A stretch of DNA of 64,000 bases from an uncultured Phycisphaerales bacterium (GTDB lineage Bacteria > Planctomycetota > Phycisphaerae > Tepidisphaerales > Tepidisphaeraceae), in contig CAVWLP010000002.1 of assembly GCA_963755915.1 (NCBI GenBank), positions 4,736,001 to 4,800,000 of the forward strand, in the 5' to 3' direction. This document shows, piece after piece, positions 15,301 through 20,413 of this stretch. Positions within the stretch are counted from its first letter, which is position 1. Every line of letters begins with the position of its first letter. The position numbers were made by a program, and so were the translations under genes. The notes under the pieces are model-generated. The model was not told the origin of the DNA and made no database searches. It saw only the letters and a program-made list of their open reading frames with translations.

Positions 15301-16218
15301 TCAGGCGCGGCGGAGGCGACGCCGACCCATCAGTGCGCCGAAGCCCACCAGCACAGCGAGGCTTGCCGGCTCGGGAACGATGGCGTTGATCTGGGCATTG
15401 GTGGCGTTTGCGCCGGCAGAACCGAGCGCGGTAATCTGCGCGGGCGACAGCGCTTGCGAGTAGATGCGAAAATCATTGGTGGCTCCCATGAAATCGGGAT
15501 CGCCGAAAGCATCGCCGCCGCCGATTCCGTCGTAGGACGTGCCACCGCCGTTAGCGGCCTCCTGCAAGCTGAAACCCGTACCCACGTTCCCCGAGGCCAG
15601 CAACGTACCGTCGTTGTAAATCGAGGCGATGCCCGTGGACGAGACGTACGTCAGAACGATCTGCAATTCCGTACCGAAATTACCATTAACCTTGAAAGTG
15701 GTTCCTGGTGCATTGATGTTCACTTCCGTACCGGCGCCACCGTTGGTAACTCCCGGCTGGTCAAAATCGGCAGTCGTGCCAGTGCCGTTGCGATTGGGAT
15801 TCAAAAGGATGAAATTGTTCGTCGCCAGGTTATTGGGCCCTGGGAGAGTGGGCGTCGCTGAGGACAGGCTGAATATCGAGGTAAAAGCTGTCTCAGAACC
15901 AGTCTGCGTCAGCCAATCCTCGATGGAAAAGTCCCCCGTGACGCCAGCGCCGACAGTGGATGGCAACGAGAGGTAATCCGTGTTGTTCGCATTGGTGGTG
16001 CTTACTACGGTGCCGGCTGCAAAACTGGCCGTTCCATCGGGATCAAGCAGAGTTCCGTTGGCCCCGCCAACCGAATCCACCCCGTCGCCGTTTGCCATAT
16101 ATCGATTGACGAGCGCGGCGTTGGCTGATGCCAAGGGCATTGCCGCGATAGCCAGCGCGAGCCAGGTCGTTGATTTGAGTAAAGCCCAATCAAAACTCTG
16201 TCTGTTATTCCGTTGCAT
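15301..16218 (-). CDS. PEP-CTERM protein with LamG/ConA-like domain
   Basis: Signal peptide; DFSIEDW, IYNDG, DFRIYSQALS; VPEP + TM + RRRLRR. Confidence 0.85.
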   Translation of the reverse strand: MQRNNRQSFDWALLKSTTWLALAIAAMPLASANAALVNRYMANGDGVDSVGGANGTLLDPDGTASFAAGTVVSTTNANNTDYLSLPSTVGAGVTGDFSIEDWLTQTGSETAFTSIFSLSSATPTLPGPNNLATNNFILLNPNRNGTGTTADFDQPGVTNGGAGTEVNINAPGTTFKVNGNFGTELQIVLTYVSSTGIASIYNDGTLLASGNVGTGFSLQEAANGGGTSYDGIGGGDAFGDPDFMGATNDFRIYSQALSPAQITALGSAGANATNAQINAIVPEPASLAVLVGFGALMGRRRLRRA

Positions 16219-16913
16219 TTCTCTCCTCGCTTTCGAGATATGGCCAAAAGACGCGATCTTTAAATTCGCCCTTTATCAGGTGCGGCATTGCCCGCACCTT
16301 GCATCCCACCTACCGACCGCAATGCGGAACTTCTTTGAGCCTTGTCTTTTTGATCTCCCGACCGTCCGCTCCAACGGAGTCCAATAAACCGGCCCATATT
16401 GAGGTCGAACTAATGTGAATTTCCGCCGGAACTAATTCTCTCTCCCGCCAAAACTCACACAAAGAGAGTATCAACTATTGATACATTTGCAAGTACATTC
16501 TGGCCTCATTAAGCAATATTTTTGACCAGGTTTGATACTACATTTGCCCGACTGCGAAGGTCCGTCTTTTGGCTTGCAATGGTGAATCCGATTGACGTTA
16601 GATCGACCCCCGGTTGCGCAAAATCGTGGACCTATAATCGAACGGCAAGATAACGATATATCAAAGGCCTGAAGGAACGCAAAAGGGGTAACGATCGCTT
16701 CACGAGATAACCGCACTCGCGCCGTACCTGTTTACCGTTCCGCGTCTGCCGAATACTCCAAGTCGAGCTTTTGATTGGCTTCATAAGCGCCGGGCCGACG
16801 GTATTGGGCCGTGCGAATCAGGCGCGCCGGGATTCCTTAGCGATCTCTGCGCTCCCCACGGTAAGTTCTCCCCCCGCCAAACCTCGATAACCCAAAATCG
16901 CCCCATCTTCCCC

Positions 16914-16944
16914 TTGACATTCCACCCAATAGGTGTATATACAC
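16914..16944 (+). promoter_or_regulatory. marR promoter with palindromic operator
   Basis: TTGACA 16914-16919; perfect palindrome GTGTATATACAC 16933-16944 over the -10; ATG at 16950. Confidence 0.65.
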
Positions 16945-16949
16945 ATAGT

Positions 16950-17417
16950 ATGGCCGATGAACCTCAAAACAGCGACCGCCAGGCCCTGCTCGAAGCGGCA
17001 CAATCCTGCCTCTGCCAGAACGCCCGCACGGCGGCCCGGGTGCTGACGCGCTTCTACGACCGCTATTTCGCCGGCACCGGCATCGAGCCGACACAGTTTA
17101 ACCTTCTTGTCGCTATCCGTCTGATGGAACCCGTTTCCCTGGTCCGCCTGGCCGATCGGCTCGCCCTGGAGCGCACGACTCTCACGCGAAACCTGGCGAT
17201 CCTCCAGCGAAAGGGAATTGTCCAGATTGCCACCGGCGCGGACGCACGTAAGCGTCTCCTCTCCCTCACACCCCTGGGCCGCACCCTTCTCAAGCGGTCG
17301 CTGTCGCGATGGAAAGAGGCCCAGCAGGCGGCCATCTCGGCCCTGGGCAACGAAAACTCAAAAAAATTCTCCGATGCGTTTTCCCTCATCAACAAACTCA
17401 ATCTGAAAGGAGATTGA
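16950..17417 (+). CDS. MarR family regulator
   Basis: CLC.NAR.AAR.LTRFYD, QFNLL, LERTTLTRNL, DARKRLLSLT..G. Confidence 0.9.
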   Translation: MADEPQNSDRQALLEAAQSCLCQNARTAARVLTRFYDRYFAGTGIEPTQFNLLVAIRLMEPVSLVRLADRLALERTTLTRNLAILQRKGIVQIATGADARKRLLSLTPLGRTLLKRSLSRWKEAQQAAISALGNENSKKFSDAFSLINKLNLKGD

Positions 17418-17418
17418 T

Positions 17419-18120
17419 ATGAGCACCACACCCGAAAGCCGCACCAGCCTTCAAACCGCCGGCGTGTTTGTCTACAGCCTTATCGCCGCGTGGTTCATCT
17501 TCGCCGTGACGATGGCTGCGACAGGCCAGTACGCCATCAACCCCACCCGTCCCCCACTGGTGTTCGGTTTGAGCGTCGCCGTCCCGATCCTCTTTTTCCT
17601 GATCGCCTACCGCCTGGACGGCCCCATCCGGCGCGTCGCCCAATGCCTCGATATGAGAGTCGTCGTTCTCGCCCACGTCTGGCGAATCGCGGCCCTGAAT
17701 TTCATTCTCGCTGCCGCCCAGGGCCGCCTTCCCATGGGCTTCGCCCTTCCCGCCGGCCTCGGCGACATGATCACCGCCCTGGCCGCGATCCCCATCGCCT
17801 TTGGCATCTCAAAAAATCTGCCTTCCATCCGAAGCTGGTTCATCGCCTGGAACCTCTTCGGCCTGCTCGACCTGGCCAACGCCGTCACCCAGGGAATCCT
17901 CCATTCCAGTAGCACCTTCGGCATCCTCACCGGCGCCGGCCCGACAACCTATCTGATGACCGTGCTCCCTCGGTCCCTGGTCCCCACCTTCCTGGTCCCG
18001 CTCTTCATCCTTCTGCACATGCTCGCGCTCTCTCGCCGCTCGGAGGTTCCGTCAACCGTATCGCAGCCGAAAAGCGAGCTCACGACCCCATGCGGATTCA
18101 TCCGATCCCTCGTCGCATGA
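17419..18120 (+). CDS. Integral membrane protein
   Basis: About six hydrophobic segments; FALPAGLGD, WNLFGLLDL, VPTFLVP. Confidence 0.8.
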   Translation: MSTTPESRTSLQTAGVFVYSLIAAWFIFAVTMAATGQYAINPTRPPLVFGLSVAVPILFFLIAYRLDGPIRRVAQCLDMRVVVLAHVWRIAALNFILAAAQGRLPMGFALPAGLGDMITALAAIPIAFGISKNLPSIRSWFIAWNLFGLLDLANAVTQGILHSSSTFGILTGAGPTTYLMTVLPRSLVPTFLVPLFILLHMLALSRRSEVPSTVSQPKSELTTPCGFIRSLVA

Positions 18121-18301
18121 TGAGTTAGCGCCCTTCCACAAAATCCCTTGGCGTTCTTGGCGGTTATAAAGAATTTTTTAACCGCCAAGAAACTATGAAG
18201 CCGAGCCTTTCTCGGGACGTGAACGGGGTCAAAATGCCCCAAGTATGAACGAGCGTACCGCGTAGGTCGCTCAAACGTCTTTTTTGAGAAAGGACTCGGC
18301 A

Positions 18302-19345
18302 ATGCGAATTCTCGCTTTGGACCTGGGAAAGAACAAGAGCGTTTTTGTGGATTATGTCACCGGCGGTGGAGAAAGAACGTTCGGCAAGATCGGCACCAAT
18401 GCCCACGAGGTGCAAAAACTACTCGAGCGGGTGCGTCCGGATCGACTGGTCATCGAGGCCGGTCCGGCGGCAGGATGGGTTTGTGATCTGGCGGAGCGGA
18501 ACAATGTTCCCGTCCAGGTGGCCAATGGCAACGATGAACGCTGGCGCTGGAAGACGGTGAAGGAGAAGAGTGATCGTAAAGACGCGCTGAAGATGGCGGC
18601 GATGTCGGAGATGGATTCGCTGCCGACGGTGCACGTGCCCAAGGCATCGGTTCGGCAGTGGCGTTCATTGATTGAATACAGACACGGCCTGGTGGATCGC
18701 CGCACGGCGCTCAAGAACTCGATCCGATCAATCTACGAGCGGCAGGGTTTGTATTTGCCCTCGGCGACCAAGGCGTGGACGAAAGCGCGACTGGAGGAAA
18801 TGAGGAAGGAAGCAGCGGCCGCATCGGCGGAAGATCTGTGGCTGTTTCAGATCGGTTGTGAGGTGGCGCAACTGGAGCACCTGGAGAAGCAGATCGAAAC
18901 TGTCGAAAGCAAGCTTCAGGAGTTGGGCCAGGCCAACAAAGCGGTGAAACGATTGCAGGAGGTGCCCGGCGTTGGTCCGCGGCTGAGCGAGGCGGTGGCG
19001 GTGATCATTGATGATCCCAGGCGATTCAAGAATGCACGTCAGGTGGGATGTTACGTGGGTCTGACGCCGCGGCGCTGGCAGAGCGGCGACAGCGATCGCC
19101 AGGGGCGGATCAGCAAGGCAGGCAACGCGCTGCTGCGGGAGTTGCTGGTGGAGGTGGCGTGGCTGGGGGTTCATCGCAATACGTGGATGAAGGACGTGTA
19201 CGAGAGGGTTCTACGTGACAGCGAGAAGCGCAAGAAGATCGCGATTGTTGCGGTAGCCAGGAGATTACTGGTGAAGCTGTGGGCGATGCTGCGGGACGGA
19301 ACCCGATGGAGAGAACCCCAGCGATCGCTGACGGCGGCCACTTGA
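18302..19345 (+). CDS. IS110-family DEDD recombinase/transposase
   Basis: LALDLGK, IEAG, KSDRKDA, VPGVG, GLTPRRWQSGD, ISKAGN..LR..L, IVAVARRL. Confidence 0.95.
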   Translation: MRILALDLGKNKSVFVDYVTGGGERTFGKIGTNAHEVQKLLERVRPDRLVIEAGPAAGWVCDLAERNNVPVQVANGNDERWRWKTVKEKSDRKDALKMAAMSEMDSLPTVHVPKASVRQWRSLIEYRHGLVDRRTALKNSIRSIYERQGLYLPSATKAWTKARLEEMRKEAAAASAEDLWLFQIGCEVAQLEHLEKQIETVESKLQELGQANKAVKRLQEVPGVGPRLSEAVAVIIDDPRRFKNARQVGCYVGLTPRRWQSGDSDRQGRISKAGNALLRELLVEVAWLGVHRNTWMKDVYERVLRDSEKRKKIAIVAVARRLLVKLWAMLRDGTRWREPQRSLTAAT

Positions 19346-19655
19346 AAATCGAAAAGGCGATGACTGTCCCGACAAGTCGGTACAGGCGATGGAGTATCTC
19401 CCCTCCGGAAGACACCGTGTCAGAAAGCCGTTGTCTTCTGTGCAGGGGATTGAGTAGAGTTGAAGTGAAGTGGAATTGACGCGTTCGTGCAGGTTGAATG
19501 AGCAAGGCCAGACCCCGGTTGGCGTCTTAAGCTTCAAAGCTTGCCGCTAAGAATAGGGCTGGCCATTTGTACAGTTGAATAGGCCCGCCGCCAGGCGAGA
19601 GCACTGAATAGAAGGCTCACCCAATCGACCGCATGAGCGATCAACGCCCCTTGAC
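19346..19655 (+). ncRNA. Putative bridge/seek RNA (ends approximate)
   Basis: Stem-loop 19506-19564 whose internal-loop strands match both target flanks; ATAGAAG 19608-19614 matches the element right end; further hairpins at 19369-19449. Confidence 0.75.
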
Positions 19656-19819
19656 AAGGCTCGGCTCATAGAAGACGCCAAGAGCGCCAAGAAATGAGGA
19701 GTTTTGCCCCACATAAATCAGATGGAAATCAGATTTTCAGACTGAATTATCTGTGTGCATCTGATTTCAATCTGACTTCGGCGAGCTCAGTCGAGGCGTG
19801 GCAAATCTGCATTTCTGCG

Positions 19820-20098
19820 CTAAGGCTCTACTTTAAGCGCCACGTGCTGGACTTCGCGGGCGTATTTGATCGCGCGCTGAACAATCTCCGATCGTTCCTC
19901 CACCGACACCGGTGATTGGCTTCTATCGGGATTGATCCAGCTCTGAATCGAGTCCGTGTAAATCTGATAGTCACTCGACCATGTCCACGTCATCGAAACC
20001 CGCCGCCCCGATTCAATATACGTCAGCGTCTCGCCGCGAAAGTCGGCGTCGAAGTCATACTGATCGGTAAACCGATATGGCTGGGCGGATTCGCTCAT
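19820..20098 (-). CDS. Small hypothetical protein, possibly Imm74-like
   Basis: IYTDSIQSW.....VS.EERSEIV pattern recalled from Imm74-like proteins. Confidence 0.35.
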   Translation of the reverse strand: MSESAQPYRFTDQYDFDADFRGETLTYIESGRRVSMTWTWSSDYQIYTDSIQSWINPDRSQSPVSVEERSEIVQRAIKYAREVQHVALKVEP

Positions 20099-20413
20099 GG
20101 ATCTGATCATAGCCCGCGGAAGGTGAAAGCTGCCTGAGGGATTTGCACCGACACCCGCTGTCGCGACGTCACCTGCCGCAAGTGCATCATTGTAAGTTCC
20201 GGCTGGCGAAAACCAATGAATGTCTGTCACCGTCGCAGACTCGAAGCTCACTCCAGTCGGTGCAACGACCCGGCTCATAATTCCGTCGAAAGGCATGCGT
20301 GCGGCGACACCTTGAAGCCGACCCTTGTTCGGTTCCACCGTCGCCCGCATGGCGGTCATACCGGCCTTGTCCTTTGGGGTAACGGGATGAGTCGTAGAAT
20401 ATCCGTCGCTCAT
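20099..20413 (-). pseudogene. N-terminal remnant of an alpha/beta hydrolase joined to unrelated sequence
   Basis: VEPNKGRLQGVAARMPFDGIM...GVSFESATV resembles an esterase cap region; no HGG or GxSxG follows. Confidence 0.4.

Follow-up and report, generated by a model that had tools for sequence, protein, structure and literature searches.

Within a 64,000-nucleotide (nt) stretch from an uncultured Phycisphaerales bacterium (contig CAVWLP010000002.1, positions 4,736,001 to 4,800,000), hereafter the window, we identified at positions 18190-19674 what is very probably an active, autonomous insertion sequence (IS) of the IS1111 group in the IS110 family, which encodes a DEDD recombinase together with a downstream guide RNA, an assignment drawn from sequence comparison. 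That IS110 and IS1111 recombinases use such RNAs, as the original prediction for this locus had stated, has been in print since 2024 under the names seekRNA and bridge RNA (PMC11187229, PMC11208160), and the element is well supported as a new example of that mechanism rather than as a new mechanism. Its features, in window coordinates, are as follows:

18147-18189, plus strand: repetitive extragenic palindromic (REP)-like palindrome, with left arm CTTGGCGTTCTTGGCGGTT, then the loop, then the start of the right arm
18188-18189, plus strand: core AG, directly after the left target half AACCGCCA, which is the start of the right REP arm; common to all nine copies in the genome
18190-19674, plus strand: insertion sequence of IS1111 type, delimited as occupied minus empty site; its 1485 bp include a single AG core
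18190-18209, plus strand: left end, with terminal extension AAACTATGA and subterminal inverted repeat AGCCGAGCCTT (18199-18209)
18302-19345, plus strand: recombinase (transposase) gene, 347 amino acids (aa); N-terminal domain DEDD/RuvC-like, GLTPRRWQSG in the C-terminal domain
19503-19617, plus strand: predicted guide RNA (seekRNA or bridge RNA) of about 115 nt, comprising two stem-loops, each with an internal loop
19506-19564, plus strand: stem-loop 1, the predicted target-binding loop (outer stem, internal loop, inner hairpin), from folds, covariation, and a covariance-model score of 111.1 bits
19519-19528, plus strand: putative 5' guide UUGGCGUCU(U), complementary to the top strand of core AG plus right flank ACGCCAA
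19544-19552, plus strand: putative 3' guide CCGCUA-AG-A, of the same sense as left flank plus core; its pairing with the bottom strand includes one U.G wobble
19565-19617, plus strand: stem-loop 2, the probable donor-binding loop, with AGUU in its 5' strand, a stem at 19583-19602, and the 3' strand AUAGA-AG at 19608-19614
19650-19674, plus strand: right end, with TTGACA (19650-19655), subterminal inverted repeat AAGGCTCGGCT (19656-19666), CATAGA, and core AG (19673-19674)
19675-19691, plus strand: right target half ACGCCAAGAGCGCCAAG, the remainder of the REP arm

The IS1111-type assignment, first made from the letters alone, was borne out by profile searches and by the architecture of the element. 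The recombinase matched PF01548 (2.9e-10) and PF02371 (2e-24) and scored 216.6 bits against the NCBIfam model NF033542, "IS110 family RNA-guided transposase" (cut-off 140), while its C-terminal half matched the IS621 (8wt6) and ISCro4 (9t56) transposases with E = 1.3e-16 and 3e-18. Residues D7, E52, D91, D94, S261, and G262 were invariant among six recombinase homologs, and the first four are those that we take, by analogy, to be catalytic. The hallmarks described for IS1111-type elements are the motif GL-P----S(T)G, a length of 330-350 aa, subterminal repeats of 7-17 bp, and a longer non-coding region downstream of the gene (PMC11187229). GLTPRRWQSG fits this motif and 347 aa lies within this range; the subterminal inverted repeats AGCCGAGCCTT/AAGGCTCGGCT span 11 nt and are 100% complementary, with extensions of 9 and 6 nt plus the core; and the non-coding sequence 3' of the gene (19346-19674) measures 329 nt, that 5' of it (18190-18301) 112 nt. 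All IS1111-group features that we examined were present, namely domains, motif, length, subterminal repeats, downstream non-coding region, and site-specific insertion, and the left- and right-end layouts recur in relatives.

A BLAST search of the element against the genome of the window (G000; 6.6 Mb, three contigs) recovered nine full copies, seven identical and two at 99.93% over 1483 bp. The recombinase frame is open in all nine, in agreement with the earlier description of the element as intact. Each copy lies between the left flank AACCGCCAAGA and the right flank CGCCAAGA, at the same site and in the same orientation, and splits one arm of a REP-like palindrome; the scenario raised in the original prediction as adverse, of other copies in unrelated targets, did not materialize for any of the nine. 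The empty site CCGCCAAGACGCCAA occurs uninterrupted 22 times in G000, always within one arm of the REP-like palindrome (...CTTGGCGCTCTTGGCGTCTTGGCGGTT-loop-AACCGCCAAGACGCCAAGAGCGCCAAGAA), and AACCGCCAAGACGCCAAG occurs uninterrupted 19 times; the site that had been restored by removing the element is therefore a genuine one, interrupted identically in 9/9 copies. Empty and occupied sites share AAGA/AG alone, with no target duplication beyond the core.

Within stem-loop 1, GGCCAGACCC (19506-19515) pairs with GGGCTGGCC (19556-19564) to form the outer stem, and this stem and the inner hairpin AAGCTT-CAA-AGCTT (19529-19542) enclose both guide strands; letters and coordinates of the two helices were correct as first described. 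On the 5' side of the internal loop, TTGGCGTCTT (19519-19528) is the exact reverse complement of AAGACGCCAA (19672-19681), which upholds the claimed 10/10 match to core plus right flank; under an AG core, the last U of this 10-mer pairs with the final left-flank base and not with the core. On the 3' side, CCGCTAAGA (19544-19552) agrees with the left-junction sequence CCGCCAAGA at eight of nine positions, likewise as claimed and at the right coordinates, the mismatch being a C-to-U change that forms a U.G wobble with the bottom strand. Counting 6 + 2 + 7 positions gives a target specificity of 15 nt, near the "about 16 nt" first estimated but one short of it. The guides are ordered with the top-strand complement 5' and the bottom-strand complement 3', and they overlap at the insertion point; the same order and overlap have been published for IS1111 seekRNAs (PMC11187229). 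Within the window alone, dinucleotide-shuffled versions of the non-coding region reached a 10-nt antisense match 8 times out of 2000. As far as sequences can tell, the main weight for the guides comes from relatives and not from the window copy.

Of 61 related genomes searched, seven encode the recombinase at E <= 1e-40, G000 included. The element of G001, a member of the same genus, is present in four copies with a recombinase 91% identical to that of the window, and its sites lie 8 bp further along the same repeat: all four junctions read ...GACGCCAAGA to the left of the element and GCGCCAAGA to its right, which corresponds to insertion at GACGCCA-AG-AGCGCCAA. The 5' guide of G001, TTGGCGCTCT, replaces TTGGCGTCTT and is the exact complement of AGAGCGCCAA, differing from the window guide by four bases (UUGGCGCUCU for UUGGCGUCUU), while the 3' guide stays the same, its fit preserved by the recurrence of the repeat unit CGCCAAGA. 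A modest but still tentative reading for this pair is that G000 and G001 were retargeted via one loop strand only, the 8-bp periodicity of the repeat letting the other guide fit. In G011, also of the same genus, we obtained 15 matches at 73% identity and examined 12 loci, every one of which reads CAGGCCAGA before the element and (AG)CCA.. after it, giving the target CAGGCC-AG-CCA..; the corresponding guides are ATGTTGGCT (also written AUGUUGGCU) and AGGCCAG. The three same-genus elements (G000, G001, G011) have three different targets with matching guides, and the proposal that the RNA is reprogrammable finds a natural counterpart in the retargeting of G001 and G011.

These relatives also bear on the extent of the core. 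AAGA is common to both junctions of the window copy, and from this copy alone the boundaries are ambiguous within those four bases. As a 4-nt core, AAGA fits the window and fails in G011, where the right junction reads AGCC; because AAGA does not fit G011, we adopted the 2-nt core AG. The AG model (target LT-AG-RT, for left and right target halves; element AAACTATG...CATAGA + AG) fits G000, G001, G011, and 67 further right junctions. The G011 empty site that it predicts, CAGGCCAGCCARC, occurs 29 times in G011, twice in G000, and three times in G001, against 0 to 1 for reversed-pattern controls. These comparisons make the dinucleotide AG the most likely recombination core; the AAGA junction repeat of the original prediction is present in the window copy, but relatives fit the shorter core. 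An AG dinucleotide at both ends has been reported for ISPpu9 (PMC12288879).

To place this correspondence between guides and flanks on a broader footing, we drew on a scan of metagenomes based on six aligned recombinases, which left 80 loci at 46-90% identity, together with six loci from a genome-contig scan and two from a viral-contig scan; a phylum-wide protein search of 400 genomes added just two further genomes at E <= 1e-70. A strict RNA pattern was found in 21 of 82 new loci. Element ends were located by pattern, which provided 67 right flanks and 53 left flanks among 79 RNA-bearing elements, and loop 1 strands were taken from a covariance-model alignment. Once 12 duplicates had been dropped, 55 elements with distinct right-flank targets remained. 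Comparing the 5' strand with the core plus 9 nt of right flank, by the longest Watson-Crick run, gave 7.25 for an element's own flank and 3.18 for those of others; the own flank was best or tied in 37/55, and none of 10000 permutations reached the observed sum, a figure that overstates independence because related elements share related targets. The 32 non-seed loci behaved in the same way (own 7.22, others 3.26; best or tied in 21/32; 0/10000). For the 3' guide against 7 nt of left flank, scored in register with wobble allowed, the values were 5.57 (own) and 3.49 (others) in 42 elements, with the own flank best or tied in half of them (21/42) and again 0/10000 permutations. An earlier version of the guide/flank test, on 23 elements, had the same outcome. 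At the level of sequence, the signal is one of base complementarity and not mere correlation.

One locus allowed a prediction. The left end of L034 is missing from its contig; from its 5' guide we predicted AGTTCTCAGA as the right flank, which then turned up directly 3' of the TTGACA...CTTCATAG right end, about 400 nt on. The covariation of guides with insertion flanks in homologous elements, which the original prediction had put forward as a check, is accordingly documented by the three same-genus targets, by the 55 elements, and by L034. A more distant locus, L068 (42% identity), has guides that fit its flanks poorly and a model score of 23 bits, and it was used neither way.

The scaffold surrounding the guides is itself conserved. 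We aligned 27 sequences, comprising the 21 pattern-found loci and six earlier ones, to a hand-set structure of 21 pairs covering the outer stem, the inner hairpin, and the stem of the second stem-loop. Across these sequences the 21 pairs were 90.1% paired, against 31-47% with slid partners; compensatory changes were observed in 16 of the pairs, and none of 500 shuffles matched the observed values on any measure. The structure is strand-specific, with G.U pairs on the plus strand. A covariance model built from the 27 sequences recovered the RNA in 79 of 90 related sources, 52 of them outside the building set. Applied to G000 (150 of 1766 candidates scored), it gave nine matches, all inside IS copies, with no solo copies. 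RNAalifold on the raw MAFFT alignment of six sequences, a poor alignment, returned almost no structure, and a search of 18000-19900 against Rfam at E <= 1 returned no bridge or seek RNA family, its lone match being a chance snoRNA-like one inside the coding region. A metagenome locus with a 70% identical recombinase, L090, gave no guide RNA by the covariance model despite about 1300 nt 3' of its gene.

The second stem-loop appears to concern the element itself. ATAGAAG at 19608-19614 is found again at the right end (19668-19674), a repeat that as a lone 7-mer is not significant by our estimate, which was not a computed one. Across the family, the 3' strand of loop 2 reads [A/G]AUAGxAG and the right end CATAGxAG, and at position x RNA and right end agree as A/A in 59 elements and as G/G in nine, with a single exception, L034, whose DNA is without that base (right end CATAG-AG against RNA AUAGAAG). 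The G form requires five changes by parsimony on a quick recombinase tree and at least three when well-supported branches alone are counted. In L112, AA replaces AG in five places: as UU in the 5' guide, and in the 3' guide, the donor strand, and both junctions. Single mismatches between donor strand and right end occur in L123 and L107, and loop 1 of L107 is also damaged. A search of the loop 2 5' strand for the complement of AGAAACTATG showed conservation of AGUU only (AUAGUU in G001). Judging by this joint variation, ATAGAAG is probably a donor guide reading the right end plus core. The candidate donor guide of the original prediction has thereby gained ground on its 3' strand, which covaries with the right end, but not on the 5' strand, where AGUU is all that was found.

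Two observations on variant cores may be added. The target of L112 (1555-1766) is a direct repeat, ACTATGT-AA-AAACTATGT. In L116, L132, L137, and L146, T follows CATAGAA at the right junction, which thus lacks the core G, and the 5' guide ends in UU while the 3' guide and the donor strand retain AG; the target in these cases may have another core, or the insertion may be half-matched.

A -35-like TTGACA is conserved and placed where a promoter assembled from the two joined ends would need it, 17 nt from the right end; its conservation is not an independent count, because the right-end search pattern required TTG. Assembled contigs from two RNA libraries include one that is 100% identical over 19305-19509 (X9) and one representing a G001-type copy over 19477-19675 and running into the flank (X20); as contigs, these data do not establish transcription and leave RNA ends, strand, and level unreadable, and stretches that they do not cover are uninformative.

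Based on complementarity, covariation, and the published relatives, we propose the following model. In loop 1, the 5' strand, UUGGCGUCU, would bind the target's top strand across the core AG and ACGCCAA, and the 3' strand, CCGCUAAG, would base-pair with the bottom strand across CCGCCA and AG. Between them the two guides would specify where the recombinase acts, namely at the 15-nt sequence CCGCCA-AG-ACGCCAA within one REP-like palindrome arm. The 3' strand of loop 2, AUAGA-AG, would read the right end of the element plus core, and the left end may be recognized through the short AGUU pairing or by the protein itself, with the 11-bp subterminal inverted repeats as its signal. As described in the literature for such elements, strand exchange would take place at the AG core, with the excised circle inserting in one orientation and without duplication beyond the core, and joining of the ends would probably complete the promoter from which recombinase and RNA are transcribed.

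A number of observations weigh against this model. In the window the 3' guide is inexact, and its longest exact sense run, 6 nt, was reached in 1752 of 2000 shuffles; an exact sense match is at chance level, so that what carries the 3' guide is the wobble together with the family comparison and not the window. Among the 55 elements, the own right flank was not the best match in 18. In the window copy both target halves repeat CGCCAAG in direct orientation, which makes one guide strand the complement of the other, and the minimum-energy fold consequently closes the loop. The covariance model found no RNA match in 11 of the 90 sources; six of these (L096, L097, L104, L126, L128, L142) have at most 180 nt 3' of the gene, and the others are L066, L069, L070, L090, and L138. 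A simple scan of 18100-19800 returned neither a sigma-70-like promoter nor an intrinsic terminator, the best -10 candidate at the joined ends, GAAACT, agrees at 3/6 positions (by eye), and the support from RNA libraries consists of assembled contigs in which DNA carry-over is possible. With regard to the second loop, AGUU, the complement of left-end AACT, amounts to 4 nt only and decays in distant relatives. For ISEc11, a short RNA with the target loop only has been reported to suffice for movement (PMC11187229), and loop 2 may therefore be non-essential. Separately, and as speculation, the C-to-U change in the 3' guide weakens self-pairing of the two guide strands yet keeps the wobble with the target.

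The points on the second loop lead to an alternative in which the element is RNA-guided but stem-loop 2 does not bind the donor: ATAGAAG would be kept for protein binding or processing, and the protein would read the inverted repeats. Besides the movement of ISEc11 with a seekRNA that has no second loop (PMC11187229), this reading draws on the lack of a convincing left-end complement in the 5' strand of loop 2 and on the inexact donor matches of L034 and L123; moreover, because the ends are nearly invariant in the family, it has faced few tests. We nevertheless consider it unlikely, if far from implausible, since the one variable position of the right end changes jointly in RNA and DNA (nine G/G pairs, at least three changes on the tree), loop 2 of L112 carries that element's AA core as well, and donor loops have been reported for IS1111-group bridge RNAs (PMC11208160).

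A second alternative dispenses with the RNA altogether and has the matching segments act as single-stranded DNA, a fold of the right end pairing with the target as in the guides of IS200/IS605 elements. Sequence does not distinguish an RNA from a DNA strand, the strand-specific G.U pairs would fit either, and the data on transcription consist of library contigs and an empty promoter scan. Against these considerations, IS200/IS605 elements use a different enzyme class, and the recombinase matches the RNA-guided family model NF033542. In IS1111 and IS110 relatives, furthermore, the RNA was reported to co-purify with the transposase and to be required in trans (PMC11187229, PMC11208160), and we judge the single-stranded DNA explanation very improbable.

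Finally, the idea that the matches between loop and flanks are passive, a copy of the REP target captured in an imprecise event while the protein alone does the targeting, finds some encouragement in a multi-copy target rich in CGCCAAG, where partial matches come easily, and in the chance-level exact sense match in the window, yet it is scarcely tenable, because a captured target would be colinear and of a single sense, whereas the matches always fall on two strands of one conserved internal loop in opposite senses and track unrelated targets in 55 elements while the surrounding stems covary.

With the element read as RNA-guided, its place among known systems can be outlined. IS621 and ISCro4, whose recombinases are homologous to the C-terminal half of the window recombinase, have the core CT, as opposed to AG here. 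Their bridge RNA is described as likewise having target and donor internal loops that read both strands round a 2-nt core; it differs in lying upstream of the gene, in its reversed target-guide order, and in accompanying subterminal repeats of 2-3 bp (PMC11208160), whereas the window element has its RNA downstream and repeats of 11 bp. The closer likeness in layout is to the IS1111 elements ISEc11, ISXne4, ISKpn4, ISPst6, and the REP-targeting ISPa11, for which PMC11187229 describes a transposase of about 340 aa with DEDD and PF02371 domains, subterminal inverted repeats, a downstream RNA-coding region, the same guide order, and the same overlap at the insertion point. Natural retargeting of close relatives is reported there for ISEc11 and ISXne4, as seen here for G000, G001, and G011. 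From these elements, compared by description and not by sequence, the window element differs in its planctomycete host and its target repeat, and its family carries a second conserved stem-loop matching the right end, whereas an 82-nt ISEc11 RNA with the target loop only was sufficient (PMC11187229). In ISPpu9 of Pseudomonas putida, the downstream RNA Ssr9 is reported to be separate and dispensable, with the bridge RNA upstream of the gene (PMC12288879); in the window element, by contrast, the downstream RNA is the predicted guide, and its 9/9 genomic matches fall inside IS copies.

Judged by titles and abstract openings, the papers retrieved on IS1111 and planctomycetes gave no account of such an element. 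Its family provides a natural series for a mechanism of engineering relevance, with 79 related guide RNAs from planctomycetes and soil or peat metagenomes that share one scaffold and address dozens of targets, among them the sister pair separated by a four-base guide change and an 8-bp shift, and the AA-core variant. The series also lends comparative support to the view that the second loop of IS1111-type RNAs probably reads the right end of the element. It leaves the published model unchanged and adds a covariance model for this clade that is missing from Rfam.

Between the stop codon of the recombinase and the guide RNA lies one further conserved structure:

19399-19449, plus strand: conserved long hairpin (CCCCTCCGGAAGACA...TGTCTTCTG..GGGG) seen in folds, within a module of about 19368-19455

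Its arms, CCGGAAGACACCG-loop-TTGTCTTCTG, are closed by CCCC/GGGG. The exact pattern occurs 49 times in G000, nine times within IS1111 copies and 31 and nine times within elements of 2860 and 2771 bp, respectively, and it was found in four of 60 other related genomes (4, 3, 1, and 1 times). Among IS1111 relatives whose recombinases are 58-85% identical, the hairpin itself is 88-93% identical; the Rfam search of 18000-19900 at E <= 1 gave no match to it. The 2860-bp and 2771-bp elements belong to the IS21 family and carry the hairpin close to their right ends (L151:2645-2702 and L152:2584-2626). A tentative and rather doubtful reading of this distribution is that unrelated insertion sequences exchange the hairpin, of about 50 nt, as a transferable cis-acting RNA module; if so, it might serve, for example, as a 3'-end or processing signal separating the mRNA from the guide RNA. 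The two IS21-family elements (L151, G000:C2:816087-818946; L152, G000:C2:571986-574756) are multi-copy, have TGTCA...TGACA ends, and encode IstA-like open reading frames (ORFs) with rve, Mu-transpos_C_2, and HTH domains in addition to an IstB ORF, the istA frame of L151 being seemingly split into several ORFs. More generally, the G000 genome is rich in insertion sequences.

As for the surroundings of the element, the right flank of the window copy (19676-20133) is 85% identical to a locus of G001 at which the REP arm is uninterrupted (L039). The left flank (16000-18189) has no match within 2 kb beside the G001 element (L039/L063), only the right flank being orthologous, and this mismatch may reflect a rearrangement at the REP or the IS. 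Just 3' of the REP, at 19715-19778, a 20-nt inverted repeat (AAATCAGATGGAAATCAGAT / ATCTGATTTCAATCTGACTT) occurs with AAATCAGAT repeated, and it is conserved at the orthologous G001 locus.

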